A stretch of 64,000 bases of DNA from Sulfuricella sp. (GCA_035530375.1 DATKUY010000038.1:34229-98228), one strand, 5' to 3'; positions 790 to 15,691 are shown, numbered from the stretch's first letter. The notes: generated by a model not told the origin, from the letters alone. Numbers and translations are program-made.

Positions 790-1919
790 GGTTGTTTTTT
801 ATTTCCTGGCGTTTCGGTTTCATCCCCGGCATCGTCGGCGCCTTGTTTCAGGCGCCTGCCGGTCAAAATGCGCTTGACCAGCGTCGCGGTAGCCTGGACG
901 GCGATGGCGCCGCCAAGAACGGCGGCACCCACCACGGCAACCTTGTCGGCATTGGATTCGATGCCCCATTGATGCATATCGGGCAGACGCTCGTAAAACG
1001 GGCCACGATCCCAGAACCCCTCCTCCGAACAGCCGATACAGCCATGGCCGGATTTGATGGGAAAGCTGACCCCCTCGTTCCACCCCATTGAGGAACAGGC
1101 GTTATATGTGGTCGGACCGCGGCAGCCCATCTTGTACAAACACCAGCCCTGACGCGCGCCATCGTCGTCCCATGCCTCGACGAACTGGCCGGCATCGAAA
1201 TGGGCGCGGCGGTAGCATTTGTCGTGGACGCGCTGGGAATAGAACATCTTGGGGCGAAGCTGGTTGTCGAGCTCGGGCATGCGGTCGTAGGTCAGGATGT
1301 AGGAGAGCACCCCGGTCATCACCTCGGCGATGGGCGGGCAGCCCGGAACATTGATCACCGGGATGTGGCTGACCAGCTTGTGCACCGGTGTCGCCTTGGT
1401 GGGATTGGGGCGCGCCGCCTGCACGCAGCCGGAGGAAGCGCAGGTGCCCCAGGCGATGATGGCCTTGGCGTGTTCCGCCGCCTCGTCGAACTGGCGGTGG
1501 AAAGGCCGCCCACCGACGATGCAGGCCATCCCGTCATTGGCGAGGGGAATGTTGCCCTCGACGGCGAGGATATATTCGCCCCGGTAATCGCGAATGATGT
1601 CGTGGACGATCTCTTCCGCCTGGTCGCCGGCTGCCGCCATGATGGTATCGTCGTAATCGAGCGAAATCATGCTGGTGATGATCTCGCTCGCCATCGGGTG
1701 GCCGGAGCGCAAAAAGCTCTCGGAACAGCAGGTGCATTCGAGTCCATGCAACCACAATACGGGAATGCGCGGCTTGGTTTCCATCGCGTGCGCCACGGTG
1801 GCAACCCCTTTCGGGCCCAGCCCCAGCATGGTCGCCATGACGGCGCAGAACCCCAGAAATTCGCGGCGGGAAACGCCGCGCTGACGGATTACTTCGTAAA
1901 AGGTTTCATGTTTGGACAC
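786..1919 (-). CDS. hoxK: [NiFe] hydrogenase small subunit, membrane-bound uptake type with Tat signal and C-terminal anchor
   Basis: 377 aa, GTG start with GGAG 6 nt upstream. Twin-arginine signal SRREFLGF...VAHA. FeS ligand motifs [23 protein letters not shown] and PGCPP. Hydrophobic C-terminal helix [15 protein letters not shown]. Confidence 0.93.
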
Positions 1920-1942
1920 AGCGACTCCATGAACACACTACG

Positions 1943-1955
1943 TTGATTTTTATCA
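1943..1955. promoter_or_regulatory. FNR/CRP-family-like palindrome TTGAT-TTTT-ATCAg in the hoxK leader
   Basis: Matches the FNR consensus TTGAT-N4-ATCAA at 9 of 10 positions. It lies 23 nt upstream of the GTG start. An equivalent box sits at 14028-14040 upstream of the second hydrogenase operon. Confidence 0.3.
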
Positions 1956-1983
1956 GTCTTTATCGGATTTTATTTGTATGAAT

Positions 1984-2113
1984 GTAACATAAGCAGCATA
2001 TGCTATGCATGTATATTTTTATGACGGGTCAGATGACGGACTTGACCATCAGAAGACAGCGCCGCACCCTTCGATGGTCACAATTTCCAGCCGAAATAGC
2101 CTCATGGCGAGCG
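1984..2113 (-). promoter_or_regulatory. Conserved hydrogenase upstream element, copy A
   Basis: Aligns by eye with 14071-14190. Shared blocks are GTAACA, CATATGC, CATGTATAT, ACGG, GATGA, ACCA, CAGA, CCCTTCG, GTCACAATTT and GGCGAGCG, in the same order and similar spacing. Confidence 0.5.
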
Positions 2114-4150
2114 CACCAAGGGGATCGTAAAGCGAAAAATGCTGCCCCTGCCCAATTCCGACTCGGCCCAGATACGGCCGCCGTGGCTTTTGACGATTTG
2201 CTGGCAGATCGACAATCCCAGCCCGGTGCCTTGCGGCTTGTCGGTGAGGGTATCGCCGATCTGCCTGAACTTGTCGAACACTTTGTCCAGGCTCTCCCCG
2301 GCGATGCCGATCCCCGTATCCTGGATGCCGAAAACGATGAACTGCCCCTGCCGTGCCGCGCTTAACGTGATGTGACCGTGATCGGTGAATTTGACGGCGT
2401 TGGAAATCAGGTTGATCAACACCTGGAGCAAACGGTTTTCATCGCCGGTCACCTCGGGCAGATCGGGCTCGGCCTCCCAGGATAGCGTCAACCCTTTCTG
2501 TTCGGCCAGTGCGGCGGTGACGGCCACAGCGCGTTCGATCAGCCGCGCCGGCACCAGCGGGGCGAAGTGCCACTCCGACTTGCCGGCTTCCAGTTTGGCG
2601 CTGTCCAGTACATCGTTGATCAGCAGGGTGAGGCGCTCGCTTTCGTTGACGATGATGTCGATATTTCCCCTCGCCTGGGAAATGGCGCGAGCAGTTTTGT
2701 CGTCCGCGGCGGCGTTGGGGAACACCACCTCCTCCAGTTTCTTTTTCACCAGTTTGGCGAAGCCGACGATGGAGGTCATCGGCGTGCGCAACTCGTGGGA
2801 CACCGTGGAAAGAAAGTCAGACTTGAGCTGGTCGAGTTCCTTGAGTTCCTCGTTGGCTTTTTCCAGTTCGGCGGTGCGCTCGCTGACCCTGGCGTCGAGA
2901 TGCCGGATGTTGTCTTGCAGGCGGTCCACCATGCCGTTGAACGCCGTTGCCACCACGCCGATTTCATCGTCCCGCTGCAGCGCGCAACGCGCATCGAGGT
3001 CGCCGTTTTCCACCCGCAGGGCGGTGTCGCTCAGGTGTTTGAGCGGATCGGCGAGTCTCTTCACGAATAGGTAAACCAGGGCGATGGAAAGCAACAGGGT
3101 GACGGCAAATACCGCCAGCACACGGTTTCTGAGTATGCGTGCGCTCTCGTCGAGTTCTTCCACATACACCGAAGAGCAGATATACCAGTCGAACCCCCGG
3201 AAATAACGCACCCAGGAAATCTTGTCATGAACATAGTTGCCGGGATCGGATGGACTGTCCCATTGATAGCGCAGACCTTCCGGCTGGTCGGCCACCGCCA
3301 TGAGCATCGAGAAAAGCGGCTTGCGCGTGGACGGATCGAGCATGTTGCCGATATTTTTTCCTTCGATGTTCGCATTGGGATGGATGAGCATTTGGTTGTG
3401 ACTGTCGAAAATATACACATAACCGGTTTTGGCAAGGCGCGTGGCCCTCAGCCGCCGCCGCAATTCCCCGATGGCGGTGGCGCGTCTGGCGTTGAATGCG
3501 GCCTCGATGTCGTCGATGTAAACACCGGTGCCAATGACCAGTTCAAAGGCTGGCAAATGCTTGTAGAAAGTCAGCTTCTCGATCGGCTTTTCCTCGCCCA
3601 GACGGCGCCACCAATAGGAATGGAAACCTTCGCCGGCGGCCCTGGCGCCTGCCACCATCGGCGGCACGATAAGGTTGCCGTGCACGTCGCGCCGGTTGGA
3701 GAAATCAGCGCCGTTCAGCTTCGGATCGGGGTGGGACACCAGGACCGAATGATAATCCGACGCCCACACGTAATCACTGTGACCGTACTGGATATGGCGC
3801 AATTCCTCGAGCAGCATGCGCTTGGCCTGTTCTTTGGTGAGCTTTCCCGCCCGGATTTGCTGCTCCAGCCAGCCGGCGCGCGATTCGACCACGGCGATGA
3901 TATTGCGCAATTCCTGCTTGCGCGCCAGCAGCAGGGATTGGCGGCTGTTTTCGAGGTCGCGGTGGATTTGCTCCACCGTCTCGTAAACATCGTTGAGGAC
4001 GGTATGTGCGCTGCGTGCCTCGACACCCTCGACGGTGCTCTGGATAAATGGCACGGACAGCAGGTACATGACGGCGAATAACAGAATGACGGCCGCCGTT
4101 GTAGTGAAAAAAACCCGGGCAAACAAACTTGATTTGAACAGATTCCCCAC
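2102..4150 (-). CDS. Sensor histidine kinase with periplasmic double Cache-like region, HAMP, HisKA and HATPase (no receiver)
   Basis: 682 aa. N-terminal TM helix. Two Cache-like modules (DYVWASDYHSVLVSHPDPKLNG; GYVYIFDSHNQMLIHPNANIEGKN). Second TM helix plus HAMP. H-box STVSHELRTPMTS. G-boxes DTGIGI and GTGLGLSI. Confidence 0.9.
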   Translation of the reverse strand: MGNLFKSSLFARVFFTTTAAVILLFAVMYLLSVPFIQSTVEGVEARSAHTVLNDVYETVEQIHRDLENSRQSLLLARKQELRNIIAVVESRAGWLEQQIRAGKLTKEQAKRMLLEELRHIQYGHSDYVWASDYHSVLVSHPDPKLNGADFSNRRDVHGNLIVPPMVAGARAAGEGFHSYWWRRLGEEKPIEKLTFYKHLPAFELVIGTGVYIDDIEAAFNARRATAIGELRRRLRATRLAKTGYVYIFDSHNQMLIHPNANIEGKNIGNMLDPSTRKPLFSMLMAVADQPEGLRYQWDSPSDPGNYVHDKISWVRYFRGFDWYICSSVYVEELDESARILRNRVLAVFAVTLLLSIALVYLFVKRLADPLKHLSDTALRVENGDLDARCALQRDDEIGVVATAFNGMVDRLQDNIRHLDARVSERTAELEKANEELKELDQLKSDFLSTVSHELRTPMTSIVGFAKLVKKKLEEVVFPNAAADDKTARAISQARGNIDIIVNESERLTLLINDVLDSAKLEAGKSEWHFAPLVPARLIERAVAVTAALAEQKGLTLSWEAEPDLPEVTGDENRLLQVLINLISNAVKFTDHGHITLSAARQGQFIVFGIQDTGIGIAGESLDKVFDKFRQIGDTLTDKPQGTGLGLSICQQIVKSHGGRIWAESELGRGSIFRFTIPLVRSP

Positions 4151-4158
4151 GCCGTATC

Positions 4159-5982
4159 CTAGTCGAGATAGCGCGCGATATCGACTTCGTCGATCTGCTC
4201 GGCGGCGAGATGCTTTTGGGCGTAAGTCGAATAAATTTTTTCTGACAGAAACAGGTCGAACAATTCGCCGTCGATGTGGTTGTCCAGCTTCATGCGGTGC
4301 ATGATGCCGATCGCCCAGTTCAGCGTGCCTGGCTTGCGATAGGGCCGGTCGGGCGCGGTGAGCGCTTCGAAGATGTCGGCGATGGCCACGATGCGCGCCG
4401 GGACGGAAAGCTGGTCGCGCTTCAGCCCACGCGGATAACCGCGTCCGTCCATGCGCTCGTGGTGGCCGGCGGCATATTCCGTGACGTTGCGCAAAGAGCG
4501 GGGAAACGAAATTTGCGACAGCATGTTGATGGTATGGACAGCGTGATCCTCGATGATTTTCCGCTCTTCCGGGTTCAACGTACCGCGCTGAACAGAAAGA
4601 TTGTAAATCTCATTTTCGGTCAGCAGCGGGAGCTCTTCGCCGCATGAATTGTGCCAGGTATTGCGGGCGATATTCTGAATCCGCGCCACATGTTCGTCGG
4701 ACGTGAATTCGGCACCCCGGTTGCATTTTTCGAGGAAGGCAAAATCCTCGTCAAGCTGGCGTAAACGCTCCTGACATATCCGCCTGGCGGCTTCCTGGTC
4801 TTTTCCCTCGGCCAGCGCGCGATAAAGGTCGATCTCCGCATCCCGGCGCAGCACCTCGAAGCGCATGGCAATCAAGTGGATACGATTTTCGATACAATCC
4901 AGCTTGGTGGCTTTATCGACCACCCACTCCGGCGTGACCACTTTGCCGCAGTCGTGCAGCATGGCAGCAATTTGCAGGGTATTGCGCTCGTCCTCGTCCA
5001 GCACGAAATCAGCAAATGGCCCGCTGTCGGCCTGGTGCGCCATATCCGCGATCATCAGGGCAATCTCCGGCACGCGGCGGCAGTGGCCGGCAGTGTAGGG
5101 CGATTTGGCGTCGATGGCGGTGGCGATGACGCGGACGAAGGACTGAAACATATCCTGCTCGGCGGCATAAAGCTGGGCATTGCGTAGCGCGGTGGCAGCA
5201 ACGGAGGATAGCGTTTGCGCGCGTTTCAAGTCGCCCGCGGCAAAGCCATCGCTATGGCGCGAGGCCAGCACCAGCAGGCCGAGATTTTCGCCATGGGCGA
5301 TCAGGGGCAGCCATAGCAACGCCCGGAAATCCGCAACTTCCCCGGCCCACAGCGGCGAAGCCGGCAAATCGTTAACGATGTCGCCGGTTTCGCGGACAGT
5401 CATTTCAGCAAACAGGCGGCTGCCCTGAAGCCGGGAAAATGCGTCTGCGGCGTTCTCGCCGAAAGACTGGATCAACTCCAGGCTGGCGCTGTCCGGGTTG
5501 CGCAGGAAAACCGCGCCATAATCGGCGGCATCCTTGCGCCCGTCGAATTCCTTGAGCAGTGAAGCTGCCACGGCGGTGGGCTTGAGGAAATGGTTGAGCT
5601 CGGTAACGGCGCGTTGCAGCAAAGCCATCTCGCGGTAGCTTTCGAGCGTTTCGCGCGCGACCGAACGACGCCCGTGTTCGGCCTCGAGCATCCCTTGCAG
5701 GACATGGGCGAGCAGGTCGCCCCAGGTTTGCGCCTGTGCGGTTTCGCCCCCCGCAGGCAGGCGCAGCAGCAACGTTCCCACCCGCTCTCCTTCCAACATC
5801 AGAGGAAAGGCTTGCACATCCGGAGCACCCTCGATCAAGTCGTGGCCGGCCTCATTCATTTCCACCAGACGCTTGCCGCCAAGTTGCAGCGCCACGCCAG
5901 TGCCGGGCGGCAGCAGAGGCAGCGCCAGCTCGAACTGCCGACGCGCCCAGGCGGGTTTGAGATAGTGTTCCGCCTTGATCAT
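4159..5982 (-). CDS. GAF-domain HD-GYP phosphodiesterase (c-di-GMP hydrolase family)
   Basis: 607 aa. Central GAF-like segment (LWLPLIAHGENLGLLVLAS). HD-GYP catalytic motifs AAMLHDCGKV and GHHERMDGRGYPRGL. Its stop is 8 nt from the next start, and its start overlaps the receiver gene stop. Confidence 0.9.
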   Translation of the reverse strand: MIKAEHYLKPAWARRQFELALPLLPPGTGVALQLGGKRLVEMNEAGHDLIEGAPDVQAFPLMLEGERVGTLLLRLPAGGETAQAQTWGDLLAHVLQGMLEAEHGRRSVARETLESYREMALLQRAVTELNHFLKPTAVAASLLKEFDGRKDAADYGAVFLRNPDSASLELIQSFGENAADAFSRLQGSRLFAEMTVRETGDIVNDLPASPLWAGEVADFRALLWLPLIAHGENLGLLVLASRHSDGFAAGDLKRAQTLSSVAATALRNAQLYAAEQDMFQSFVRVIATAIDAKSPYTAGHCRRVPEIALMIADMAHQADSGPFADFVLDEDERNTLQIAAMLHDCGKVVTPEWVVDKATKLDCIENRIHLIAMRFEVLRRDAEIDLYRALAEGKDQEAARRICQERLRQLDEDFAFLEKCNRGAEFTSDEHVARIQNIARNTWHNSCGEELPLLTENEIYNLSVQRGTLNPEERKIIEDHAVHTINMLSQISFPRSLRNVTEYAAGHHERMDGRGYPRGLKRDQLSVPARIVAIADIFEALTAPDRPYRKPGTLNWAIGIMHRMKLDNHIDGELFDLFLSEKIYSTYAQKHLAAEQIDEVDIARYLD

Positions 5983-6362
5983 GACCGTCCCAAAATCTCG
6001 CGGGCCAAATCTAGAATTTCGTCGGGATCGAATGGCTTGGTGACGAAGCGATGTGCACCCACTTCCAGGCCGCGCACCCGATCCGATTCCTGACCCTTGG
6101 CGGTCAGCATAACGATGGTTATATCAGTCAGCACAGCATTTTTCCGTACCGCCGCGCAGACTTCATAACCGTTCATAAGCGGCATCATGACATCCAGAAA
6201 CACCAGCTTGGGGTGCTCGCGTTCGATCAGCGCCAATCCTTCAGCGCCGTTGACGGCCACCAGGATTTCCGGTTCCCCTTCCAGGTCTTCCAGGGTTTGC
6301 TCAAGCAGGGAGCGGATGTGGGTTTCGTCGTCCACAATAACGATTTTTGCATTTTCACTCAT
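5979..6362 (-). CDS. Single-domain response regulator (CheY-like receiver)
   Basis: The track ORF is 5979-6374. ATG 6360-6362 is preferred (GGAGGA 5 nt upstream), giving MSENAKIVIVDDE...FLDVMMPLMNGYE...MLTAKG. This ATG overlaps the upstream kinase stop (GATGAGTGA). Confidence 0.9.
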   Translation of the reverse strand: MSENAKIVIVDDETHIRSLLEQTLEDLEGEPEILVAVNGAEGLALIEREHPKLVFLDVMMPLMNGYEVCAAVRKNAVLTDITIVMLTAKGQESDRVRGLEVGAHRFVTKPFDPDEILDLAREILGRS

Positions 6363-9201
6363 CGTGTCCTCCAATAGTTATTCTGTCGTTCATTGCCATT
6401 TCTGTCCGGGTTTCGCGTGCCGCCGGCACGGGCATGATCATGACTTCCAGAGAGGGAATGGCGTTCAACATGCTTAAATCCACCTTGTTGAGCAAATCGG
6501 TAGGGATCAACAGCATACCCTGAAAGCCTGACCGGATGCGAATGGACAGCTCATCGATGGAGCAAAAATCCACCTCGCAATGGGCGGTGAAGCCGCCTGG
6601 TGCCATCGCCGAATTCCGCTCCACATCGTAGAGCATCAAGAAGCGCACTTTTTTCAACTCCGCGCTTTCGCCATCGCCCAGCAGCAAATGAATATTCTTC
6701 AGGAAACGCGACTCGTCGAGCGGCTTGCCCATGGCCAAATCCCCGCCCGCCGTTTCCCAGCCGGAGAAAGCCGAAACCACCATGATGGGAATGTGTTGCA
6801 GCTCCGGGTCGGAGCGCAGCCTGGCGATCGCAGTGCGTCCGTCCATCACCGGCATGGCGAGGTCCATGGTAATCAGGTCGGGGCGATGCGCTTGCGCGGC
6901 ACCCATGGCGGCTTGTCCGTCCGCCGCAGAAATGACGTCGTAGCCCTGTTCCTGCAATAACTGGGTGAGATAGTCGCGCACACCTACGTCATCATCCACC
7001 ACCAGCACCCTGGGTTTTCCGCCCATGCCGGATGGTCTCGCCTCATACTGCTCTTCGGCGGCTGATGGCGCGATATGCGAGGAGATGTCGGCCGCATTCG
7101 CCAGACTATCAGTGGCAGGCAACAACACGGAGAACACGCTGCCCTTGCCCGGCTGCGATTGCGCCTGGATTCTCCCGCCGTGCCGCTCGACGATCTCGCG
7201 CGAGATCGCCAATCCCAGACCGGTGCCGGCGGGTCTGTCCATCAGGGTGTCGCCATGCTTGGCCTGCTGAAATTTGTCGAAAATCGTTTCAGCTTCTTCC
7301 GGGGGGAATCCAATGCCGCTGTCGCTGATGTCAATCTGGATCAGGTTTTCCGGGTTGAGGAAAACTTGCACCGTCACCGCGCCCCGGTCGGTAAATTTTG
7401 CGGCGTTGTTGAGCAGGTTGACCAGCACCTGCAACATGCGGTCGGCATCGCCGACGAACAGCGGCAATCCGTCCTCGATTTCAACTTTCAGTTCGACACC
7501 GGGTTTCAGATCGAACATCCCTTGCGCCGCGTTGACCGCATCGTGCACCAGCACGCCGGGCTGCACCGGCGCATCGCGCCACTCGACCCTTCCCGCCTCG
7601 ATTTTGGCCAGGTCGAGAACATCGTTGATGAGGCGGGTGAGACGGTCCGATTCCTTGAGGATGATCGCCAGATTTTCCCGGATGCGTTCGGATTTCTTGT
7701 TCAACCCGGCGTCATCGAACGCCTGGGGGGCGAAGCTGCGGGAAAACTCGCGCTCGACCAGATGGGCGAACCCTCTGATCGAAGTGAGCGGCGTGCGCAA
7801 TTCGTGGGAAACAGAGGAAAGGAAATCCGACTTCAGTTGATCGAGTTTTTGTAAACGCCGATTTGCCTCCTCCAACTCCGTATAGCTGTCGCGCAGCTTC
7901 CCTTCTGCATCTTCCGCCATCTCCTTCGCACGCAGCATCGCTTCTGTGGCCTCGTATTCAGTGGTAACGTCCTCGACTGTCCATACCGAGCCATGTGTCG
8001 GATCGATGGAGAGTGCACAGCCGCTCAGCCTGGCCCAGAAAAGAGACCCGTCTTTGTGCTGCATCTTCATGACTCGCTGGTGGGTATTGCCGTGCACCAA
8101 ATCGCGATAAGCTTCGCCGACAGCTCGATAGCTTTCCTCGTCCGGATACCAGCACCGCGTCGGTTGCCCGCAAAGCTCACCTGGGTCATAGCCTAACAAC
8201 TCTTCGAGTTTGCGATTGGCTCTGACCACAACACGATCCTTGATGAAAGCAATGCCAAACGTTGACGACTCGAAAATCGCTGCCTGCTCTTCATTCGCCT
8301 TGTCCACCGCATCCTTGGCGGTCTGGAGCCGGGTCAGGATAGCCTCGGTTTTTTCGAACTGGTCGACCACCAGTTTGTTGAAGGCCCTGGCGATGCCGAC
8401 GGCCTCCAAACCGCCCGTTTCCGGCAACCGGCGCCGCAGGTCGCCGCTGACCTCGATCTCGCCCATGACCCGCGCGGCATCGGCGATCGGTTGCGCAATA
8501 CTCCGCGCGATAATTGTGGAAATGGCATACAGCGCCGCGCCAAGCAGCAAGACGATGAAGGCGAAACTCCATACCATCTTCCAGTAGAGCGCATCGATGT
8601 CGTCGATGTAGATGCCGGAACCGATGACCCAGCCCCAAGGCGCGAATTTCTTCACATAGGACATCTTCGGGAAGATTTCTTCGGTCACGCCTCCGCCTTG
8701 CTTGGGCTTGGGCCACAGATAGGTCACGTAGCCGTGGCCCGCCTTGTTTGCCACTGTGTCGAAGGCGACGAACAAATTCATCTTGCCGTCGGTAGTCTCC
8801 ACCCGGCCGTCGGTGCCCTCCTGCATGCTGGTGGCGCAATTAAACTTTGCCGAGTCCAGCACCTTGCCATCGAGGCTCGGCACGGTCGGATGCATCACCA
8901 TTTTCGGCACGGGGGCGCCCAGGTCGTTGATCCAGAAATATTCCTCGCCCGCGTAGCGCAGCGTTTTGATCTCTTCGACCGCCGCCTTGCGCGCAGCGTC
9001 GCCCGTAAGCTTGCCCTGCTTTTCCTGTTGCTGGTAATAATTCAGCACGCCGTAGGCCGTCTCGACCAGATGACGGGTCTTGAGCTTCCTCTCCTGCAGC
9101 AGATCGGTCTTCTTGCCGGCCACGATCAATATCGCAAGAACCACGAGTATCACCAGCGGCAACAGGTTTGCCAATCTGAGCTTGAACGCAATGCTCTTCA
9201 T
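6355..9201 (-). CDS. Hybrid sensor histidine kinase: TM, single Cache, TM, HAMP, PAS, HisKA, HATPase, REC and an extra C-terminal domain of about 100 aa
   Basis: 948 aa. Cache motif EEYFWINDLGAPVPKMVMHPTVPSLDGK. PAS (IFESSTFGIAFIKDRVVV...). H-box SSVSHELRTPLTS. DSGIGF and GTGLGLAI. REC (PRVLVVDDD...ITMDLAMPVMDG). Tail KKVRFLMLYD...EVMIMPVP. Confidence 0.9.
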   Translation of the reverse strand: MKSIAFKLRLANLLPLVILVVLAILIVAGKKTDLLQERKLKTRHLVETAYGVLNYYQQQEKQGKLTGDAARKAAVEEIKTLRYAGEEYFWINDLGAPVPKMVMHPTVPSLDGKVLDSAKFNCATSMQEGTDGRVETTDGKMNLFVAFDTVANKAGHGYVTYLWPKPKQGGGVTEEIFPKMSYVKKFAPWGWVIGSGIYIDDIDALYWKMVWSFAFIVLLLGAALYAISTIIARSIAQPIADAARVMGEIEVSGDLRRRLPETGGLEAVGIARAFNKLVVDQFEKTEAILTRLQTAKDAVDKANEEQAAIFESSTFGIAFIKDRVVVRANRKLEELLGYDPGELCGQPTRCWYPDEESYRAVGEAYRDLVHGNTHQRVMKMQHKDGSLFWARLSGCALSIDPTHGSVWTVEDVTTEYEATEAMLRAKEMAEDAEGKLRDSYTELEEANRRLQKLDQLKSDFLSSVSHELRTPLTSIRGFAHLVEREFSRSFAPQAFDDAGLNKKSERIRENLAIILKESDRLTRLINDVLDLAKIEAGRVEWRDAPVQPGVLVHDAVNAAQGMFDLKPGVELKVEIEDGLPLFVGDADRMLQVLVNLLNNAAKFTDRGAVTVQVFLNPENLIQIDISDSGIGFPPEEAETIFDKFQQAKHGDTLMDRPAGTGLGLAISREIVERHGGRIQAQSQPGKGSVFSVLLPATDSLANAADISSHIAPSAAEEQYEARPSGMGGKPRVLVVDDDVGVRDYLTQLLQEQGYDVISAADGQAAMGAAQAHRPDLITMDLAMPVMDGRTAIARLRSDPELQHIPIMVVSAFSGWETAGGDLAMGKPLDESRFLKNIHLLLGDGESAELKKVRFLMLYDVERNSAMAPGGFTAHCEVDFCSIDELSIRIRSGFQGMLLIPTDLLNKVDLSMLNAIPSLEVMIMPVPAARETRTEMAMNDRITIGGHDE

Positions 9202-9317
9202 CGTTCTTCCCTACAAGTAAAAATTCGTACTCCTGGCACATCCTCGCTCAGGTCTTGCCACCCTCGCCCAGACTGCCTTGGGATAACCCGCCGTCTTGCT
9301 CGTGTCATTTACAGAAT

Positions 9318-9350
9318 CTTGCGCGCACAATCGCGATTTTTGCATTTTCA
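9318..9350 (-). pseudogene. Relic of a response-regulator 5' end left by duplication of the kinase/receiver junction
   Basis: The minus strand reads GAGGAGTGAAAATGCAAAAATCGCGATTGTG, against GATGAGTGAAAATGCAAAAATCGTTATTGTG at 6340-6365. The receiver ATG is mutated to AGG. Similarity ends after about 30 nt and a stop follows. Confidence 0.5.
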
Positions 9351-11102
9351 CTCCTCGTGTTCTCCAATAGTCATTCTGTCGTTCATTGCCATTTCCGTCC
9401 GGGTTTTGCGTGCCGCCGCCGGCACGGGCATGATCATGACCTCCAGCGAGGGCGTGGCATTGAGAAAGCCGATATCGACCTGGTTGAGCAGGTCGGCCGG
9501 AATCGCCACCATGCCCTGAAATCCTGCCTGGATGCGAGCGGGCAGTTCCTTGATCGGGCAGAAACCCACTTCGCAGTAAGCGGCGAAGCCTCCCGGCACC
9601 ATCGTCGGCGACCGCCCCTCTTCGTAGAGCACGAGAAAATGCACTTTTTTCGTCTCGACGTTGCCGGCGGTCGCGTCGTTCAGCAACAAATGGATGTTTT
9701 CCACAAAACGCGTTTCGTCCAGCGGCTTGCTCATGGCGACATCCCCTCCCGCCGTTTCCCAGCCGGGGATGGCCGAAATCACCATGATCGGGATACGTTT
9801 CAGCTCGGGGTCGGCGCGCAGCAGGTTGATGGCCGTGCGCCCGTCCATCACCGGCATGGCGAGATCCATGGTAATCAAATCCGGCCGGTGGCTTTTCGCG
9901 ATGGCCAGCGCCGCCTGGCCGTCCGCCGCGGTAATCACCTCATATTCCTGTTCCTGCAGCAGTTGGGCGAAGTAATCGCGCACACCCGGATCGTCGTCCA
10001 CCACCAGCACCTTGGGTTTACCCTCCTTGCCGGCCACAGATTCGCCAGCGGCTTCCCGATGTTTTCCCTCCTCGACGAAGGAGGCGATGCGGGAAGTGAT
10101 TGCTACGGTTTCCGCCAGCCCCTCGGCGGCGGGCGGCAGCACCAGGGTGAACACGCTGCCTTGGCCGGGTTGCGATTGCGCCCATACCCGCCCGCCGTGC
10201 CGGCCGACGACTTCACGGCAAATCGCCAGCCCCAGGCCGGTTCCCTTGGGGCGATCCAGCAGGGTGTCGCCGTGCTTGGCCTGCTGGAATTTGTCGAAAA
10301 TCGCCTCCGCCTCCTCCTGCGGAAACCCGATGCCGGTGTCGTGGACCTCCATCTGGATCAGCTTTTCCGGGTTGAGGAAGGCTTTCACCGTCACCGAACC
10401 CTGATCGGTAAACTTGGCGGCGTTGTTGAGCAGGTTCACCAGCACTTGCTGCATGCGGTCGGCATCGCCGATGAATAGAGGTAATCCCGGCTGGATTTCG
10501 AGGCGTAATTCGACCGCCGGGTTCTGCTCGAACATGCCGTGCACCGCGTTGGCCGCATCCCGGATGAAGGCGGCGACCTGCAACGGGGCATCGTGCCAAT
10601 CGGTTCGCCCGGCCTCGATCTTGGCCAGATCGAGGACGTCGTTGATGAGACGGGTGAGTCGCTCCGATTCCTTGAGAATGATTTTCAGGTTTTCCTCGAT
10701 ACGGGCGGCTTTCTTTTGCAGTCCGGCGTCTTCCCCTGCCAGCGGCGCGAAACTGCGTGTGAACTCGCGGTCGATCAACTGTGAAAATCCGCGGATGGAA
10801 GTCAGCGGGGTGCGCAATTCGTGGGAGACCGAAGAGAGGAAGTCCGACTTCAGTTGATCCAGATTTTGCAAACGCTGGTTGGCTTCTTCCAGTTCGGCGT
10901 TGTTTTCGTTCAGGCGCTCGCCGGCGGCCTGGAGCCGGGTCAGGATGGCTTCGGTTTTTTCGAACTGCTCGACCACCAGTTGTGCGGTGATTTCCGCTGC
11001 TTCCCGCGACACGCGGATTTCCTCGCGCAGCATGCGGTTCTCCGCTTCGAGCGCTGTGTGCCCGTCATTTCCGGCTGTCAGGGTTGGATCATGACGCTCC
11101 AT
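9348..11102 (-). CDS. Hybrid histidine kinase without a recognizable input domain: coiled coil, HisKA, HATPase, REC and the same C-terminal ~100-aa domain
   Basis: The track ORF extends to 11255, but that part lies inside the protease gene. ATG 11100-11102 is preferred (GAGG upstream), giving MERHDPTLTAGNDGH... (584 aa). It is a close paralog of 6355-9201 from FEKTEAILTRLQ onward and has no TM, Cache or PAS. The start overlaps the protease stop by 14 nt. Confidence 0.85.
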   Translation of the reverse strand: MERHDPTLTAGNDGHTALEAENRMLREEIRVSREAAEITAQLVVEQFEKTEAILTRLQAAGERLNENNAELEEANQRLQNLDQLKSDFLSSVSHELRTPLTSIRGFSQLIDREFTRSFAPLAGEDAGLQKKAARIEENLKIILKESERLTRLINDVLDLAKIEAGRTDWHDAPLQVAAFIRDAANAVHGMFEQNPAVELRLEIQPGLPLFIGDADRMQQVLVNLLNNAAKFTDQGSVTVKAFLNPEKLIQMEVHDTGIGFPQEEAEAIFDKFQQAKHGDTLLDRPKGTGLGLAICREVVGRHGGRVWAQSQPGQGSVFTLVLPPAAEGLAETVAITSRIASFVEEGKHREAAGESVAGKEGKPKVLVVDDDPGVRDYFAQLLQEQEYEVITAADGQAALAIAKSHRPDLITMDLAMPVMDGRTAINLLRADPELKRIPIMVISAIPGWETAGGDVAMSKPLDETRFVENIHLLLNDATAGNVETKKVHFLVLYEEGRSPTMVPGGFAAYCEVGFCPIKELPARIQAGFQGMVAIPADLLNQVDIGFLNATPSLEVMIMPVPAAARKTRTEMAMNDRMTIGEHEE

Positions 11103-11517
11103 GAATGGCGACCTCCATGCTGCGTTCGGCCAGTGCGCGGATAGCCGGTTCATCCATCGCGCCCTCCGCACCGACCAGCGCGATTTCCGGCAGCGGCGCC
11201 GCGCATACCTGCGGCAACAACTGCAACAGGTAAGGCAATCCTGCGCCATGGCCATAGCGGCCGGCGTAACCGGCCACCTGTTCGCGGCTCAGCACCACAA
11301 TACCGTCGGCGTCCGCCACGCCTGCCAAGGCATCGACGAACACCACGCGGCACTTGCCTTCCACCAGCCGCAGCAGATCCAGGCCGCACAAACCGCCGTC
11401 GAATACTTCGATGCCCTGCGGAATAGCGCTGCCTGTCAGGCAGTCGAACACGCGGCAACCGACGTCGTCGCCCGGAACGAAGCGGTTGCCAAGACAGATG
11501 ACGGCGGTTTGGGTCAC
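11089..11517 (-). CDS. Hydrogenase maturation endopeptidase (HyaD/HupD/HoxM family)
   Basis: The track ORF is 11089-11634, but its 5' part overlaps the large-subunit gene. GTG 11515-11517 gives (M)TQTAVICLGNRFVPGDDVGCRV..., 142 aa. Family motifs present: GNxxxxDDxxG, VVFVDA and GHGAG. Confidence 0.8.
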   Translation of the reverse strand: MTQTAVICLGNRFVPGDDVGCRVFDCLTGSAIPQGIEVFDGGLCGLDLLRLVEGKCRVVFVDALAGVADADGIVVLSREQVAGYAGRYGHGAGLPYLLQLLPQVCAAPLPEIALVGAEGAMDEPAIRALAERSMEVAIHGAS

Positions 11518-11521
11518 GATT

Positions 11522-13057
11522 TCAACACCGCAACGGGGTTTTATCGGCGCCGACCACATGCACCGTGCATACCAGGCACGGGTCGAAGGAGCGCACCACA
11601 TGGCCGGCTTCCACCGGGTTGTCGATATCCGCAATCGGGGTACCGATCAACGCTTCCTCCCATGGCCCGCGCACCCCCGCATGGTCGCGCGGCGAACCGT
11701 TCCAGGCGGTGGGGGTGACGATCTGGTAGCGGGCAATCTTGCCGTCGCGAATCTCCACCCAATGCCCCAGTGCGCCGCGCGCTGCCTCGACCAGACCAAA
11801 ACCGCGCCCGTCCTTGATGGGCGGAACCGGCTCGTAATAGGGTTGGTCGGGCCGCGCGGCCATTTCGCCTAGCCAACTTTCCATAGCGGCCAGCAGCGTT
11901 GCCGGACGGGTAAGACGCGCCAACTGGCGAATGACCAGGTTGGCGCCGTCGCGCCGCAGCAGGTCGCCAAACAACGGGTCGCCGCCGACGATGCGTTCGG
12001 CCAGCGGCCCGGTTTCCGCCGGCAAGCCGGCGTAGCGCGGCGCTTTGCTCCACGAGTATTTTTTGCCGTCGGCGCCGGTGGCATGGGGAACGGTTTCGCC
12101 CTCGAACGGGTGTTTTCCGCCATCGTAATCGGCGTACCACGACGAGGCGACATGCTCCGCCACCAGGGCTTGGTCGAAGGGCTGCGCATGCCCATCCCTG
12201 GCGACGAAGCCGGATCCGACCAATTGTGTTCCCGCGCCGCTGCCGGCGACGGCGCTGTCGCCGGGCAGTTCCAGCGAACCGCAGGATAAAAAATGGCCGT
12301 GCCCCTGCCCCAAGGCGAACAGTCCAGCTTCGCGGGCGAAGCGCAGGAAGAAGCCGACATCGCTGTCGCGCTGAGCATCGCTCTCGTTCAGCCAGGCGTC
12401 GAGATCGGCGGCGCTTTGCACTGCCTGCCAGCGTTCCAGCGAACAGCCGAGCACGCTTTTTTCATACCAACTGCGATAATGTTTCAGGATATGGCGGCAC
12501 TGGTTCAGTTCGGCCAGTGGCGGAATATAGGACACGCCGCCCGGCACCATGAACGAGCTGTGCGGCCACTGACCGCCGAGAATGGCGATGATCTCCAGGA
12601 GGGTCTTGGTCTGCCGCACCACGTCGATGCAGCGCTCGCCTGCCAGCGGCGCGTAGCGCTTGACTGCCTCGGCGTATAACGAGTGCGCCGCGTAAACCGG
12701 CGCGGCGAAATCCGGCAGGAACATCAGCACCGACTGGCGCACGTCGCTCTGGCAATGCTCGACCATCAGCGTCACGTTGCGCAGCCGGACGGCATTATCC
12801 GGTAGATCGACCCCGGCGATATGGTCGAGCGCCTTGGCTGCCGCCATCAGGTGAGTGGTGCTGCATATGCCGCAGACGCGAGGGGTGATCACCAATCCAT
12901 CGAGCGCGCCGCGACCCACCAGAATGTTCTCGAAGCCGCGGAACATCGTGCCTGAACTCCAGGCATCGACAACCCGATTGTTTTCCAGTTCGACGCGGAT
13001 TTCCAGGTCGCCTTCGACGCGGTTGAGGGGAATGTCGCGGATGATTCTTCTCGTCAT
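11522..13057 (-). CDS. [NiFe] hydrogenase large subunit, cytoplasmic sensor-like type (HoxC/HupV-like) with an 11-residue C-terminal extension
   Basis: 511 aa. N-terminus IPLNRVEGDLEIRVE rather than TRIEGH. Ni ligand motifs PRVCGICS and DPCLVCTVH, followed by VVGADKTPLRC. GGGAG Shine-Dalgarno in the 13-nt gap after the small-subunit gene. Confidence 0.9.
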   Translation of the reverse strand: MTRRIIRDIPLNRVEGDLEIRVELENNRVVDAWSSGTMFRGFENILVGRGALDGLVITPRVCGICSTTHLMAAAKALDHIAGVDLPDNAVRLRNVTLMVEHCQSDVRQSVLMFLPDFAAPVYAAHSLYAEAVKRYAPLAGERCIDVVRQTKTLLEIIAILGGQWPHSSFMVPGGVSYIPPLAELNQCRHILKHYRSWYEKSVLGCSLERWQAVQSAADLDAWLNESDAQRDSDVGFFLRFAREAGLFALGQGHGHFLSCGSLELPGDSAVAGSGAGTQLVGSGFVARDGHAQPFDQALVAEHVASSWYADYDGGKHPFEGETVPHATGADGKKYSWSKAPRYAGLPAETGPLAERIVGGDPLFGDLLRRDGANLVIRQLARLTRPATLLAAMESWLGEMAARPDQPYYEPVPPIKDGRGFGLVEAARGALGHWVEIRDGKIARYQIVTPTAWNGSPRDHAGVRGPWEEALIGTPIADIDNPVEAGHVVRSFDPCLVCTVHVVGADKTPLRC

Positions 13058-13070
13058 GGCAGGCTCCCGC

Positions 13071-14006
13071 TCAAACCTTGGTTTCGCGCTTCTTCAGGCG
13101 CTCCGGCGCGGCCGCAGCGGCCATCCCCTTGTACACCATGTAATGGGCGCGACTGATGCCTTTCGGCAACTCGATGGGTACGCCCTCGATGTTGCGGGTT
13201 TCGAAGAAAGGGAAAGGCATCGGGAATTCCGGGCTGGTGCAGCCGAAGCACGGTACGCCTGCCCGTGTCTTGGACGAGCGGTTGTTCCATAGCAACTTGT
13301 TGCACGGCCCATCGGCCAGCGGCCCGTGACAGCCCTTGTGGAAAAACAGGCAGCCGCGCTGGGCGAAATCCCATTCCTCGACGCGGTACTCGTGATATTC
13401 GTTACGGGTGCAGCCCTGATGCACCGTCATGCCGTACCAGTCAAGCGGCCGGTTGAATTCGTCCAGTTCCAGCGCTTGCCCGGCGACCAGCGCGGACAAC
13501 GTACCGGCCATGACTTCGGCATGGCACGGGCAGCCCGCCAGGTTAATCACCGGCAAGCCGGATTTTGAACGGAAATCCTTGCCGAGCAGCCCACCGGGCT
13601 GTTTTTTCAGGAACTGCAAACCGGTGGCCTGGATATCGCTGTCGGCGCCTATCCCGCCGAACGCGGCACAAGTGCCGGCAGCGACCACCATGCGCGCTTG
13701 TGCCGCCAGCGCCGACACCAGATCCTTTTTAGGGCGTCCATTTCTGACGTCGAACATGCCGGTGCTGGCGGGGCCGCGAATGATCGCGCCTTCCACCACC
13801 AGAATGTCCAGCGCTTGTTCCCCTTGGGTCAGGCTTTCGACCAGCTCGTTCTGTGCCACGGGCGACAGGGTCGACAAGGACGGATGCCACAGGAGTTGAA
13901 TGCCGAGGATGTCGAACAACTCGATCATATCCGGGGATTCGGTATTGAGAAACGACATGGTGTCGCCGCCGCACCCGCCGCATTGCAACCAGAATAACGA
14001 AGCCAT
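13071..14006 (-). CDS. [NiFe] hydrogenase small subunit, cytoplasmic type without Tat signal (HoxB/HupU-like)
   Basis: 311 aa. It starts directly at MASLFWLQCGGCGGDTMSF with no RRxFLK signal. FeS cysteine motifs GTCAAFGG, AGCPCH, CHGPLADGPC and VPCFGC. Confidence 0.9.
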   Translation of the reverse strand: MASLFWLQCGGCGGDTMSFLNTESPDMIELFDILGIQLLWHPSLSTLSPVAQNELVESLTQGEQALDILVVEGAIIRGPASTGMFDVRNGRPKKDLVSALAAQARMVVAAGTCAAFGGIGADSDIQATGLQFLKKQPGGLLGKDFRSKSGLPVINLAGCPCHAEVMAGTLSALVAGQALELDEFNRPLDWYGMTVHQGCTRNEYHEYRVEEWDFAQRGCLFFHKGCHGPLADGPCNKLLWNNRSSKTRAGVPCFGCTSPEFPMPFPFFETRNIEGVPIELPKGISRAHYMVYKGMAAAAAPERLKKRETKV

Positions 14007-14027
14007 ACCCCACCTTTTTATTAATTA

Positions 14028-14040
14028 TTGATTTTTATCA
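14028..14040. promoter_or_regulatory. FNR/CRP-family-like palindrome TTGAT-TTTT-ATCAt in the leader of the sensor-type hydrogenase operon
   Basis: Same 13-mer core as 1943-1955. It lies 21 nt upstream of the ATG at 14004-14006, just 5' of the AAGGTGGGG Shine-Dalgarno. Confidence 0.3.
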
Positions 14041-14070
14041 TGATTTTCTAACTTTATGGTTTTTCAAGTG

Positions 14071-14190
14071 TAACAAACATATGCCATTCATGTATATATT
14101 AATTACGGCTCGGATGAACCTCGACCACCAGACAGTGCCCCGCCCTTCGGTTGTCACAATTTGCACCCTCTGCCTGGTCTCGGCGAGCGG
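14071..14190 (-). promoter_or_regulatory. Conserved hydrogenase upstream element, copy B
   Basis: Homologous by eye to 1984-2113. See copy A. Confidence 0.5.
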
Positions 14191-14229
14191 TCCGACGGTG
14201 TCGAGCACGCCGGACATGGCTGCAGTCGC

Positions 14230-14691
14230 TCAGGTGTTGGGATGACTGTGCAGATGGGAATGCGCGCCGTGCTCATGCTCCTCCACATCCAGGTTGACCG
14301 GAATCAGGTTGAGCTGGCCGTGGCGCACGCCGCGCTCGGCGATGACGCTATCCGAAAAAGCCCGCACCTCGGCGGTCGGCCCACGCAGAATCACGGTTTC
14401 CAGGCAATCGTCGTGGTTGAGGTGGACGTGCATGGTGGACAGGTTGAGGTGGTGATGAGCGTGCTGCAGGCTGGTAAGCCGCGCCGCCAGGTCGCGTTCG
14501 TGATGGTTATAGACATAGCTCAGACTGGCGATGCAATTGGGCGCCTCGGCACTGCAGATGCGCCGCGCTTCAAGCTGTTGTCGCAGCATGTCGCGCACTG
14601 CCTCGGAACGGTTCAGGTAGCCGCGGCTCTTGATCAGATCGTCGAACTGCCGCGCCAGCGATTCGTCCAGGGAAAAGGTAAAACGTTCCAT
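14230..14691 (-). CDS. nikR: Nickel-responsive transcriptional regulator NikR
   Basis: The track ORF is 14230-14811; ATG 14689-14691 is preferred. MERFTFSLDESLARQFDDLIKSRGYLNRSEAVRDMLR is the ribbon-helix-helix N-terminus. The ACT-like C-domain has His and Cys ligands (YVYNHHERDL, HAHHH, HVHLNHDDCLE), followed by a His-rich tail. Confidence 0.9.
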   Translation of the reverse strand: MERFTFSLDESLARQFDDLIKSRGYLNRSEAVRDMLRQQLEARRICSAEAPNCIASLSYVYNHHERDLAARLTSLQHAHHHLNLSTMHVHLNHDDCLETVILRGPTAEVRAFSDSVIAERGVRHGQLNLIPVNLDVEEHEHGAHSHLHSHPNT

Positions 14692-14811
14692 AGCCTCTCT
14701 TTCATGCAAGATAAATGCCGCGCCAGAAATCCAGCTTACCGCCAAATTATTCCCGGGAATAGGCAGGACTCCATGCAAGACAAGGAGCCCTGTAACTATG
14801 GCACGAAACAT

Positions 14812-14838
14812 GTATGATGATTATTAAAGTTATCATAA
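14812..14838. promoter_or_regulatory. Candidate NikR operator GTATGAT-N13-ATCATAA
   Basis: Inverted repeat 16 nt upstream of the NiCoT ATG, in the nikR/NiCoT divergent intergenic region. It resembles the E. coli nik operator GTATGA-N16-TCATAC; here the form is GTATGA-N15-TCATAA. Confidence 0.55.
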
Positions 14839-14854
14839 CCGCAAGGAACCCGAG

Positions 14855-15691
14855 ATGGAAAATTTGCCCAACGACTGGCTCGCGCTGCTGGCTCTGGTAT
14901 TCGTGCTGGGGCTGAAACACGGCTTCGATCCCGACCACCTCGCCACCATCGACGGCCTGACCCGCTTCAACGCCGCCGCCAACAAACCCCGGCTGTCGCG
15001 CTGGTCGGGCCTGCTGTTCTCGCTCGGCCATGGCACCGTGGTGATGGCGGTGGCGGTGCTGGTCGGCCTCGTCGCCAAGCGCTGGGCGATACCCGCCTGG
15101 ATCGAGGATTTGGGCGCATGGATTTCGATTTTGTTCCTGCTCGCGCTCGGCGCGGTCAACCTCCTTGCCGTCATCCGCGCCCGCCCCGACCAAGTGGTGC
15201 GCATGACCGGTCTGAAAGGTCGCTGGCTGGGCAGACTCAGCCAGGCCAGCCATCCCGTGCTGATCGCCTGCATCGGCGCGCTGTTCGCCCTTTCCTTCGA
15301 CACCTTGAGCCAGACCGCGCTGTTTTCCCTGGCCGCATCGAGCATGGCAGGCTGGCTATACTCGGTGGTACTCGGCCTGGCTTTCATGCTCGGCATGATT
15401 GCCACCGACGGCATCAACGGTCTGTGGATTTCGCATTTGCTCAACCGCGCCGACCAGCGCGCGCTGATTGCTTCGCGCGTGATGGGCCTGACGGTGGGCA
15501 GCTTGAGCCTGTTGGTCGGCGCGTTCGGCATCGTCAAATATTTTTTCCCCGAAGTCGGCGCCCACACCGAGGGACGCGAACTGCTGATGGGACTGGCCGT
15601 GGTCGTCATCGTGGCATTGAGCTTCTATCTCGCCTTGCACCTGTCGCGCCGTCAGCCCGCCACGCTCGCGCCGCTTTCTTCCGAAAACTGA
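14855..15691 (+). CDS. NiCoT-family nickel/cobalt permease (HoxN/NixA-like, short form)
   Basis: 278 aa polytopic membrane protein. It carries the NiCoT signatures LKHGFDPDHLATIDG and FSLGHGTVV, plus LGMIATDGINGLW. Confidence 0.85.
   Translation: MENLPNDWLALLALVFVLGLKHGFDPDHLATIDGLTRFNAAANKPRLSRWSGLLFSLGHGTVVMAVAVLVGLVAKRWAIPAWIEDLGAWISILFLLALGAVNLLAVIRARPDQVVRMTGLKGRWLGRLSQASHPVLIACIGALFALSFDTLSQTALFSLAASSMAGWLYSVVLGLAFMLGMIATDGINGLWISHLLNRADQRALIASRVMGLTVGSLSLLVGAFGIVKYFFPEVGAHTEGRELLMGLAVVVIVALSFYLALHLSRRQPATLAPLSSEN

Follow-up and report, generated by a model that had tools for sequence, protein, structure and literature searches.

A group 2c-type [NiFe] hydrogenase of Sulfuricella sp. 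paired with a helix-bearing hybrid histidine kinase: a predicted signalling input to a cyclic-dinucleotide enzyme

To our knowledge, the sole characterised mechanism of H2 sensing in bacteria is that of HoxBC/HupUV acting with HoxJ/HupT and HoxA/HupR. Here, we analysed a 64-kb stretch of DNA from Sulfuricella sp. (GCA_035530375.1, DATKUY010000038.1:34229-98228; hereafter the window), in which eight tightly packed minus-strand genes spanning 14006-2102 encode a cytoplasmic [NiFe] hydrogenase, its maturation endopeptidase, three histidine kinases (K1, K2 and K3), a CheY-like receiver and a GAF/HD-GYP protein (Table 1). We lean towards the view that this locus encodes a group 2c-type hydrogenase acting as a signalling input, not in energy conservation, and that its signal passes via K1 to the cyclic-dinucleotide enzyme. 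The original prediction, that H2 perception by a sensor-type hydrogenase feeds a phosphorelay whose output includes hydrolysis of cyclic di-GMP (c-di-GMP), appears to be supported as far as comparative genomics reaches, with corrections concerning the diagnostic residues and the relevant kinase. The sensing of H2 by the hydrogenase is suggested by association; docking of the hydrogenase on K1, a response to H2, the direction in which phosphoryl groups travel, the nucleotide hydrolysed and any influence on expression of the membrane-bound hydrogenase are likewise inferences.

The evidence for this reading centres on K1. This protein comprises an N-terminal helix, a dimerisation and histidine phosphotransfer (DHp) domain, a catalytic and ATP-binding (CA) domain, a receiver (REC) and a small alpha/beta C-terminal domain; Pfam recognises HisKA, HATPase_c and Response_reg, the last with its acceptor Asp, and the H-box SHELRTP provides the phospho-acceptor His94. 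The N-terminal segment contains a motif of ~50 amino acids, ENxxLReEIRVAReAAEITAxLVVeQFEkTE..L.R.Q, which lay outside all Pfam and NCBIfam models in our scans of K1, and a profile of the segment showed that the motif starts the protein encoded after the hydrogenase in ~45 loci seeded with the large subunit. The segment is 70% identical between K1 and a Magnetospirillum kinase, and the kinase cores of these two proteins are 33% identical; two short motif proteins consist of the motif and GGDEF only. The NahK/ErcS and NosR models of NCBIfam gave matches with scores well short of their curated cut-offs. K1 had been described as an input-less kinase, a description that we reject, since the protein carries a specific and conserved N-terminal module whose helix motif is tied to the hydrogenase.

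The motif is rare and its position is nearly constant. When 1.84 billion representative proteins were searched exhaustively with phmmer, only 118 matched, all of them N-terminally save for two internal multi-stretch matches, and among the 53 full-length matches HATPase_c was found in 48, HisKA in 46, PAS in ~39, a receiver in 37, a histidine phosphotransfer (Hpt) domain, which this cluster lacks, in 18, GGDEF in four and SpoIIE in one. For an independent test, metagenome contigs were scanned with the motif alone (a seven-sequence alignment), and loci with at least 1.2 kb of upstream sequence were counted: a [NiFe] large subunit lies immediately upstream on the same strand in 58/59 of these motif-seeded loci, at a distance of 54-774 nt, with the protease intervening when the gap exceeds ~400 nt. 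Because it is rare, N-terminal and preceded by a large subunit in 58/59 motif-seeded loci, we regard the motif as a predicted hydrogenase-specific transducer module and as a candidate hydrogenase-docking and signal-input helix. K1 is, on this comparative evidence, the putative cognate partner of the hydrogenase, and K2 and K3 are predicted to be lineage-specific additions; of the three kinases originally proposed to be wired to the hydrogenase, K1 is universally tied to it, but K2 and K3 are not. Linkage of a hydrogenase clade to kinases through a dedicated N-terminal helix appears to be undescribed in the sources searched. The sole motif kinase of the 59 without a hydrogenase upstream (L118, Ga0190283_1001230) has a methyl-accepting chemotaxis protein gene there, followed by genes for a histidine kinase (HK) with two receivers (HK-REC-REC) and for a REC-GGDEF protein, and this may be a decayed or rearranged locus.

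In a model of K1 built by AlphaFold2 with 39 homologues (mean predicted local distance difference test score, pLDDT, 76.8), residues 12-118 form a single unbroken helix in which the motif runs into the DHp helix bearing His94; the best fold match of the model is the hybrid kinase ShkA (6qrj). The alpha/beta domain of ~100 amino acids past the receiver (9351-9665) carries a CxxxxC pair that is also found in K2, and the second cysteine, Cys515, is invariant in 39/39 aligned kinases, the first being nearly invariant in a 31-sequence alignment. This domain had no Pfam match and, modelled alone, no significant fold match (best E=0.09), its fold being of the generic flavodoxin/CheY-like alpha/beta kind. 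Our guess is that the C-terminal domain of K1 and K2 is a pseudo-receiver, or it could hold a redox or metal site.

The pairing of hydrogenase and kinase extends across the relatives. We compared ~100 related loci, annotated with Pfam and numbered individually (L081 and so on). The order small subunit, large subunit, HycI-like protease and hybrid kinase is kept in all of the relatives' contigs first retrieved, which came from Sulfuricella (93% identity), Rhodocyclaceae, one unclassified source, Magnetospirillum magneticum AMB-1 and Phycisphaerae. Contigs of other Sulfuricella and of Rhodocyclaceae, as well as unclassified beta/gammaproteobacterial ones, keep the longer order of hydrogenase, protease, hybrid kinase, receiver and GAF/HD-GYP, and the expected synteny of kinase, receiver and HD-GYP genes with the hydrogenase was thus found on the beta/gammaproteobacterial branch. 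The arrangement is, judged by gene order, far beyond chance, since dozens of unrelated genomes share this core. In a census of the 32 loci of the window type with at least 4 kb of downstream sequence, with Pfam spot checks, a kinase directly follows the hydrogenase or protease in 31/32 (30 by automatic parsing, and L016), and such loci span Proteobacteria, Planctomycetota, Desulfobacterota, Acidobacteria and others. A c-di-GMP enzyme is encoded nearby in 15/32 (REC-GGDEF or GGDEF in nine, HD-GYP in six), the output being HD-GYP in beta/gammaproteobacteria and REC-GGDEF in Desulfobacterales. The receiver between kinase and HD-GYP is kept in L001, L007, L081, L082, L089, L099-L101 and L162, and K3 occupies the equivalent position in L007, L081, L101 and L162.

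Other relatives carry other genes after the same core. In M. magneticum AMB-1 (L085), the core is followed by genes for a divergent receiver, a REC-PP2C (SpoIIE) protein and a STAS protein, and L108, L110, L120, L159 and L161 have the core with a receiver, a REC-PP2C (SpoIIE) phosphatase and, where Pfam-checked, a STAS protein; the predicted output of L085-like loci is partner-switching, not a c-di-GMP enzyme. In the Phycisphaerae locus, a PAS protein is encoded upstream and a STAS protein close by. In the sister clade typified by Ideonella, a PAS-GGDEF-EAL protein or a kinase is encoded directly after the protease, and in two such loci (L039:11986-14928 and L040:11945-14911) the post-protease signalling protein starts with a Rieske [2Fe-2S] domain (Pfam scores of 30.1 and 29.1 bits, respectively, with a cut-off of 20.3), followed by a similar coiled coil, PAS domains and then HK-REC or GGDEF-EAL. 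The Rieske domain on transducers of the sister clade hints at redox coupling of hydrogenase and transducer and suggests that electron transfer from the hydrogenase might be the signal.

The class of the hydrogenase was addressed with a neighbour-joining tree (100 bootstraps) of the large subunits from 80 genome loci together with annotated-plasmid references, namely HoxC of pHG1, HupV of Acidovorax and Bradyrhizobium, and Huc-like enzymes of Mycobacterium and Sphingopyxis. Large subunits of the window type form a clade of 40 taxa with 91% bootstrap support that excludes groups 2a and 2b, each of which is itself a clade at 100%; the Ideonella-type clade, which is GGDEF/EAL-linked, is supported at 98% and is united with the window type at 95%, sister to 2a. 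A Sulfuricella sp. metagenome-assembled genome (MAG) encodes a protein with 100% identity to the large subunit, which is 60-93% identical to other members of its own family, including an 81%-identical homologue in a Methylococcaceae MAG, 46.5% to the Ideonella dechloratans plasmid enzyme, 42-44% to 2a enzymes and 38-40% to HoxC/HupV of group 2b (HoxC 38%). All four active-site cysteines are present and the set of FeS ligands is complete, as judged from motifs and the alignment. The L1 motif of the window type is RxCGICSTTHL (here RVCGICSTTHL), and its L2 motif and C-terminus read RSFDPCLVCTVH, with the core SFDPCLVCTVH, plus an extension of 5-20 amino acids; in the window the extension comprises 11 amino acids past CTVH (VVGADKTPLRC), and the protease gene comes next. 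In group 2a, L1 is RICGICGGSHL and L2 with the C-terminus is RSFDSCLVCTVH plus an extension, whereas in group 2b L1 is RxCGICSVSQS and the protein stops exactly at CT[VA]H, as do all six 2b sequences compared.

We rejected membership of group 2b given the separate clade, the distinct L1, the C-terminal extension with its protease and the lack of an NtrC-type activator, and membership of group 2a given the separate clade and the differing motifs (CGICSTTHL and SFDPCLVCTVH here versus CGICGGSHL and SFDSCLVCTVH). Group 1 was likewise rejected, as the large subunit does not cluster with group 1 enzymes, which match it far more weakly. The placement outside group 2a and group 1, on which the original prediction turned, thus held. 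We file the large subunit under group 2c, because its L2 matches the published group 2c consensus SFDxCLVCTVH (PMC4853749), Methylobacter genomes carry enzymes classified as 2c by HydDB (PMC12810054), and a homologue occurs in a Methylococcaceae MAG; this sequence-based assignment rests on that motif, the taxon range and our own tree, which has no HydDB-labelled 2c anchor. A review labels the Cupriavidus necator and Rhodobacter capsulatus sensors "2c" (PMC11023054, Table 1 and text), as opposed to 2b in HydDB; we treated this as a labelling slip, and it is a possible source of confusion in literature searches.

HydDB describes group 2c as "diguanylate cyclase-linked (putative)", and in the literature searched the c-di-GMP link is a bioinformatic prediction only (PMC5037454), in agreement with the background given in the original prediction. 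The class has already been predicted, and the present locus is an additional member with an HD-GYP and multi-kinase elaboration. Like the HydDB class, the enzyme is cytosolic, shares the L2 consensus and a gene-order link to genes of c-di-GMP turnover, has a function predicted from gene context only and overlaps in taxon range (methanotroph-related Gammaproteobacteria and Desulfobacterales). Unlike in the HydDB description, the output here is an HD-GYP phosphodiesterase reached via kinase and receiver, not a diguanylate cyclase, and the constant partner across the clade is the helix-bearing histidine kinase (31/32 loci), c-di-GMP enzymes being found in about half.

The small subunit and the gas-channel residues were also compared across the groups. 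The small subunit begins MASLFWLQCGGCGG and has no twin-arginine leader, versus a 50-amino-acid RREFL leader on the membrane-bound small subunit, so that the predicted lack of a twin-arginine translocation (Tat) signal was confirmed by the sequence start and the alignment. Aligned with HoxB, HupU, HucS and the membrane-bound subunit, it stops ~25 residues short of HoxB/HupU, with no HoxB-type tail. Window-type small subunits carry a GCPCH motif with a clade-specific extra Cys beside a proximal-cluster ligand, where 2a, 2b and Ideonella-type enzymes have GCPAH, GCPTH or GCAPH and the membrane-bound subunit has GCPP; the extra Cys may indicate a modified proximal cluster. PLNRVEGDLE and RVCGICS in the large subunit had been taken as marks of an H2 sensor, but they are not diagnostic: RVEGD is common to all of group 2, 2a enzymes carrying RVEGDLD, and the Ile occurs throughout the group. 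The Ile of CGIC does correspond to Ile62 of HoxC, one of a pair of residues in the gas channel of sensors (PMC11023054), as had been supposed; it is present in every 2a, 2b and 2c sequence aligned, however, and is not sensor-specific. At the second channel position (HoxC Phe110), the window enzyme has Met112, a residue shared by 36/55 clade members; 2b enzymes have Phe at this position and 2a enzymes either Ile or Leu. The Ile/Met pair would be compatible with a narrowed channel and does not identify a sensor.

With the 2b systems HoxBC-HoxJ-HoxA of C. necator and HupUV-HupT-HupR of R. capsulatus, the locus shares a cytoplasmic, Tat-less enzyme encoded beside a kinase and a respiratory uptake hydrogenase, and the Ile of CGIC. 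It differs from them in clade, in L1 (STTHL here, SVSQS in 2b), in the C-terminal extension and own protease, in the lack of the 2b small-subunit tail, in Met instead of Phe at the second channel position and in its signalling partner, a hybrid kinase with an N-terminal helix and no NtrC-type activator versus the PAS input of HoxJ; the pHG1 and Acidovorax loci show the canonical 2b arrangement of kinase and NtrC-type activator. The absence of HoxJ and HoxA counterparts, noted originally for the cluster, extends to the whole 64-kb window, in which there is no NtrC-like or HoxJ N-terminal-like open reading frame (ORF).

K2 and K3 appear to have been added to this core. K2 consists of a transmembrane (TM) segment, sCache_2, a second TM segment, HAMP, the second half of the motif, PAS, DHp-CA, a receiver and a K1-type C-terminal domain; it is a paralogue of K1, with 67% identity across the kinase, the receiver and the ~100-amino-acid C-terminal domain. 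From residue 276, K2 is collinear with the lone PAS kinase of L082 and L089, which is composed of the N-terminal segment, PAS, kinase, receiver and C-terminal domain; relative to that layout, K1 is without PAS and K2 has the first half of the segment replaced by TM-sCache-TM-HAMP. PAS-less K1-like kinases of 560-590 amino acids are common. K1 and K2 look like duplicates of one ancestor with N-terminal segment, PAS and kinase, with a breakpoint within the N-terminal motif (6355-11102 compared with L081:11956-16004). In the 93%-identical Sulfuricella locus L081, K2 has only 767 amino acids, its HAMP and PAS are undetected and its gene overlaps that of K1, and hence the 146-nt gap of the window does not occur there; this K1-K2 part of the cluster is, to judge from such comparisons, evolving quickly. 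The K3 kinase core is 49% identical to that of K1, and its DHp domain closely resembles the DHp domains of K1 and K2. Because the regions around the phospho-acceptor His are nearly alike, with nearly one sequence in all three kinases, the data are consistent with a common receiver for K1, K2 and K3.

A candidate route from hydrogenase to output can be assembled from these parts. We propose that the mature dimer of small and large subunits would dock on the N-terminal helix of K1, and that H2 oxidation would cause a redox or conformational change in the hydrogenase that shifts K1 between kinase and phosphatase states, because the predicted helix runs unbroken into the helix bearing the phospho-acceptor His. 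Phosphoryl groups from K1 would then be passed to the stand-alone receiver, in which the acidic pocket, phospho-acceptor Asp, Thr and Lys are intact. This receiver would act on the GAF/HD-GYP phosphodiesterase and so alter the level of a cyclic dinucleotide, most likely c-di-GMP; the link is supported because the two genes share a 4-nt overlap in the window and form a single fused gene in L010 and L134 (a fusion of this kind is seen in a Sterolibacterium locus). K2 and K3 may, as lineage-specific additions, bring periplasmic Cache-sensed signals into the same receiver.

We think it unlikely that the module is instead an H2 sensor that mainly switches on the adjacent membrane-bound hydrogenase operon, as HoxBC-HoxJ does, with the cyclic-dinucleotide enzyme as a side branch. 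The cluster is followed by hoxK and hoxG, which begin an operon for a membrane-bound hydrogenase of the O2-tolerant type, and the TRIEGH and RICGVCT motifs reported for that enzyme were recovered in the hoxG N-terminus. In the window, hoxK begins 182 nt downstream of the cluster and is read in the same direction, genes for nickel regulation and uptake flank the cluster, and L081, L082 and L021 likewise have a neighbouring group 1 small subunit. Set against this, neither a DNA-binding response regulator nor an NtrC-type activator nor a c-di-GMP riboswitch was found in the cluster or window, and in most relatives a group 1 hydrogenase is missing within 10 kb; because a group 1 hydrogenase is adjacent in few loci only (L081, L082 and L021), linkage to the membrane-bound enzyme is not a trait of the family. 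Outside the cluster, the 64-kb window encodes no kinase, receiver or NtrC-type regulator, and its remainder consists of housekeeping genes.

It is rather improbable that the hydrogenase is a catalytic enzyme for energy conservation or redox balancing like those of group 2a, with kinases that regulate it or are merely co-transcribed and a helix that tethers the regulator to the enzyme. The window enzyme does resemble 2a Huc and the cyanobacterial-type uptake enzymes: among solved structures, Mycobacterium smegmatis Huc of group 2a comes nearest (E=3e-126; 7utd/7uus), group 1 enzymes matching far worse, the clade is sister to 2a, RVEGD, CGIC, the C-terminal extension and the dedicated protease are shared, and the four active-site cysteines and full FeS ligands are kept. 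The two groups nevertheless fall into separate clades (100% and 91%), the 2a motifs are GGSHL in L1 and SFDSCLVCTVH in L2, and the 2a loci examined have maturation and hypothetical genes downstream, not directly a kinase. No electron-acceptor subunit or membrane anchor (HucM-like, cytochrome b) was found in any locus examined, the signalling protein is the sole invariant neighbour, neighbours made of motif and GGDEF only are hard to see as regulators of an enzyme, and a respiratory membrane-bound hydrogenase is already next door.

The nature of the output raises a further alternative, that the HD-GYP protein degrades 3'3'-cyclic GMP-AMP (cGAMP) or is a non-catalytic nucleotide receptor and does not hydrolyse c-di-GMP, which we judge improbable. 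Pfam HD_5 matches the protein with E=3.7e-40, and an unusual insertion of ~100 amino acids divides the HD half from the HHE..GYP half. Its best PDB sequence match is the cGAMP-specific V-cGAP3 of V. cholerae (5z7c, 6e-23), slightly above the c-di-GMP enzyme PmGH (4mcw, 2e-21), and such matches do not discriminate between c-di-GMP and 3'3'-cGAMP as the likely substrate. All HD-GYP metal-ligand motifs are complete (GHCRRV, LHDCGK, DHAVH, HHERMDGRGYP and ADIFEAL), favouring catalysis, and other branches of the hydrogenase clade have REC-GGDEF or GGDEF/EAL outputs, which are c-di-GMP enzymes. Very improbable, finally, is a module that senses cellular redox state or O2 through the FeS clusters of the hydrogenase and not H2: the Rieske domains of the sister clade, suggestive of electron flow as signal, the extra conserved Cys of GCPCH and the conserved CxxxxC of K1 and K2 would suit it, but to equip a plain redox sensor with a full NiFe site, its own protease and neighbouring nickel-supply genes would be costly.

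Several observations weigh against the hydrogenase-to-K1 signalling route that we favour. The C-terminal extension and dedicated protease are retained as in catalytic enzymes, unlike in proven 2b sensors; the nearest solved relative is the energy-conserving Huc; and the gas-channel pair is Ile/Met, versus Ile/Phe in 2b sensors. No c-di-GMP enzyme was found nearby in 17/32 census loci. According to Pfam, no Hpt domain is encoded in the cluster, leaving the route from K1 to the receiver incomplete, and the HD-GYP protein has a GAF domain and not a receiver, so that control by the receiver must act in trans. No DNA-binding output is encoded in the cluster or the 64-kb window, an Rfam search of 1-16000 gave no c-di-GMP riboswitch upstream of hoxK or elsewhere, and no experiment on any clade member was found in the literature searched.

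The proposed route has parallels in known circuits. In the H-NOX/HnoK systems with HnoB/HnoD (Shewanella, Vibrio) and in NosP/NahK, a gas-binding metalloprotein controls a kinase, with relay to EAL or HD-GYP regulators. These share with the present locus a separate gas-binding metalloprotein, a cytoplasmic kinase without a classical sensor domain and a c-di-GMP end point; they differ in using a haem protein and nitric oxide (NO), versus a two-subunit NiFe enzyme and H2 here, and there is no sequence-level membership. In RpfC-RpfG of Xanthomonas, a hybrid kinase responds to a diffusible fatty-acid signal and acts on a REC-HD-GYP protein. The path from hybrid kinase to HD-GYP phosphodiesterase is alike, and L010 and L134 have fused REC-HD-GYP proteins; here, by contrast, receiver and HD-GYP are separate proteins, a GAF domain accompanies the HD-GYP domain and the proposed input comes from a hydrogenase.

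Group 2c has been classified since 2016 as "putative, undetermined role", and Greening et al. 2016 is said to be the original paper on the group. The present locus and its relatives offer handles in the form of a defined partner kinase, a short conserved helix and the cyclic-dinucleotide level as a read-out, and the hydrogenase-K1 pairing is a good candidate for a second kind of bacterial H2 sensor. A broader proposal, which we hold with slightly more doubt than belief, is that group 2c constitutes a second, independently evolved family of H2 sensors, in which the undescribed helix plugs the hydrogenase into kinases or diguanylate cyclases and the outputs (HD-GYP, REC-GGDEF, PP2C/STAS and Hpt) vary by phylum. 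If so, environmental H2 would be tied to second messengers in sulfur oxidisers, methanotrophs, sulfate reducers, magnetotactic bacteria and planctomycetes, H2 would steer choices between biofilm and motile lifestyles through these messengers, beyond hydrogenase expression alone, and the "diguanylate cyclase-linked" label of HydDB would cover just one branch of a kinase-linked family.

Table 1. Coordinates of the hydrogenase cluster and flanking features, counted from the first letter of the window
Feature	Position	Strand	Remarks
Small subunit, cytoplasmic [NiFe] hydrogenase	13071-14006	-	311 aa; Pfam Oxidored_q6 and NiFe_hyd_SSU_C
Large subunit, filed as group 2c-type	11522-13057	-	511 aa; PF00374
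HycI/HupD-type maturation endopeptidase	11089 to ~11517	-	~142 aa; start inferred from L081 orthologue
K1 hybrid histidine kinase	9348-11102	-	584 aa; Pfam
K1 N-terminal motif, residues 16-72	10887-11057	-	ENRMLREEIRVSREAAEITAQLVVEQFEKTEAILTRLQ
K1-K2 intergenic gap	9202-9347	.	146 nt; sole long junction
K2 sCache-HAMP-PAS membrane hybrid kinase	6355-9201	-	948 aa; Pfam
Stand-alone CheY-like receiver	5979-6374	-	131 aa; Pfam Response_reg 1.7e-28
GAF and HD-GYP protein	4159-5982	-	607 aa; Pfam HD_5, HD, GAF_2
K3 dCache-HAMP membrane histidine kinase, without receiver	2102-4150	-	682 aa; Pfam
hoxK	786-1919	-	Membrane-bound hydrogenase small subunit; Tat leader RREFL
hoxG N-terminus	1-789	-	TRIEGH, RICGVCT; continues beyond window edge
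NikR	14230-14811	-	Co-directional with and upstream of small subunit; Pfam
NicO/HoxN-type nickel permease	14855-15691	+	Pfam
TonB-dependent receptor	15728-17779	+	Pfam

The genes of the cluster were delimited by an ORF listing and Pfam scans, which bear out the gene content and order proposed originally, with one amendment: nine genes had been counted in 2102-14006, but this range contains eight, the ninth being hoxK, which lies beyond it. The tight packing with a single exception is likewise evident from the junction lengths within the range. From the small subunit onwards, these are a 13-nt gap to the large subunit, a 4-nt gap to the protease gene, a 14-nt overlap with K1, the 146-nt gap to K2, an overlap of 8-20 nt with the receiver gene, a 4-nt overlap with the HD-GYP gene and an 8-nt gap to K3. 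Scans of the 146-nt gap for sigma-70 promoters and terminators gave no signal above shuffled controls. The protease matches TIGR00072 with 49.6 bits (cut-off 47.45), its Pfam HycI match is weak, and its position is conserved among the loci of relatives.

On the hoxK side, the encoded protein has the supernumerary cysteines CTCC and GTCASSGC, which we regard as characteristic of O2-tolerant enzymes of group 1d, whose proximal cluster is [4Fe-3S]. Upstream of hoxK, scans for sigma-70 promoters and terminators gave nothing above shuffled controls, and no sigma-54 -24/-12 element was seen there by eye. This upstream region (1920-2101) is AT-rich and contains a short palindrome, GCATATGC, inside CATGCATAGCATATGCTG, which could be a regulator-binding site. 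On the opposite side, the genes for NikR, a permease and a TonB-dependent receptor (14230-17779) lie directly upstream of the cluster in an arrangement shared with L081 and apparently form a module for nickel supply that is linked to the genes of the hydrogenase.

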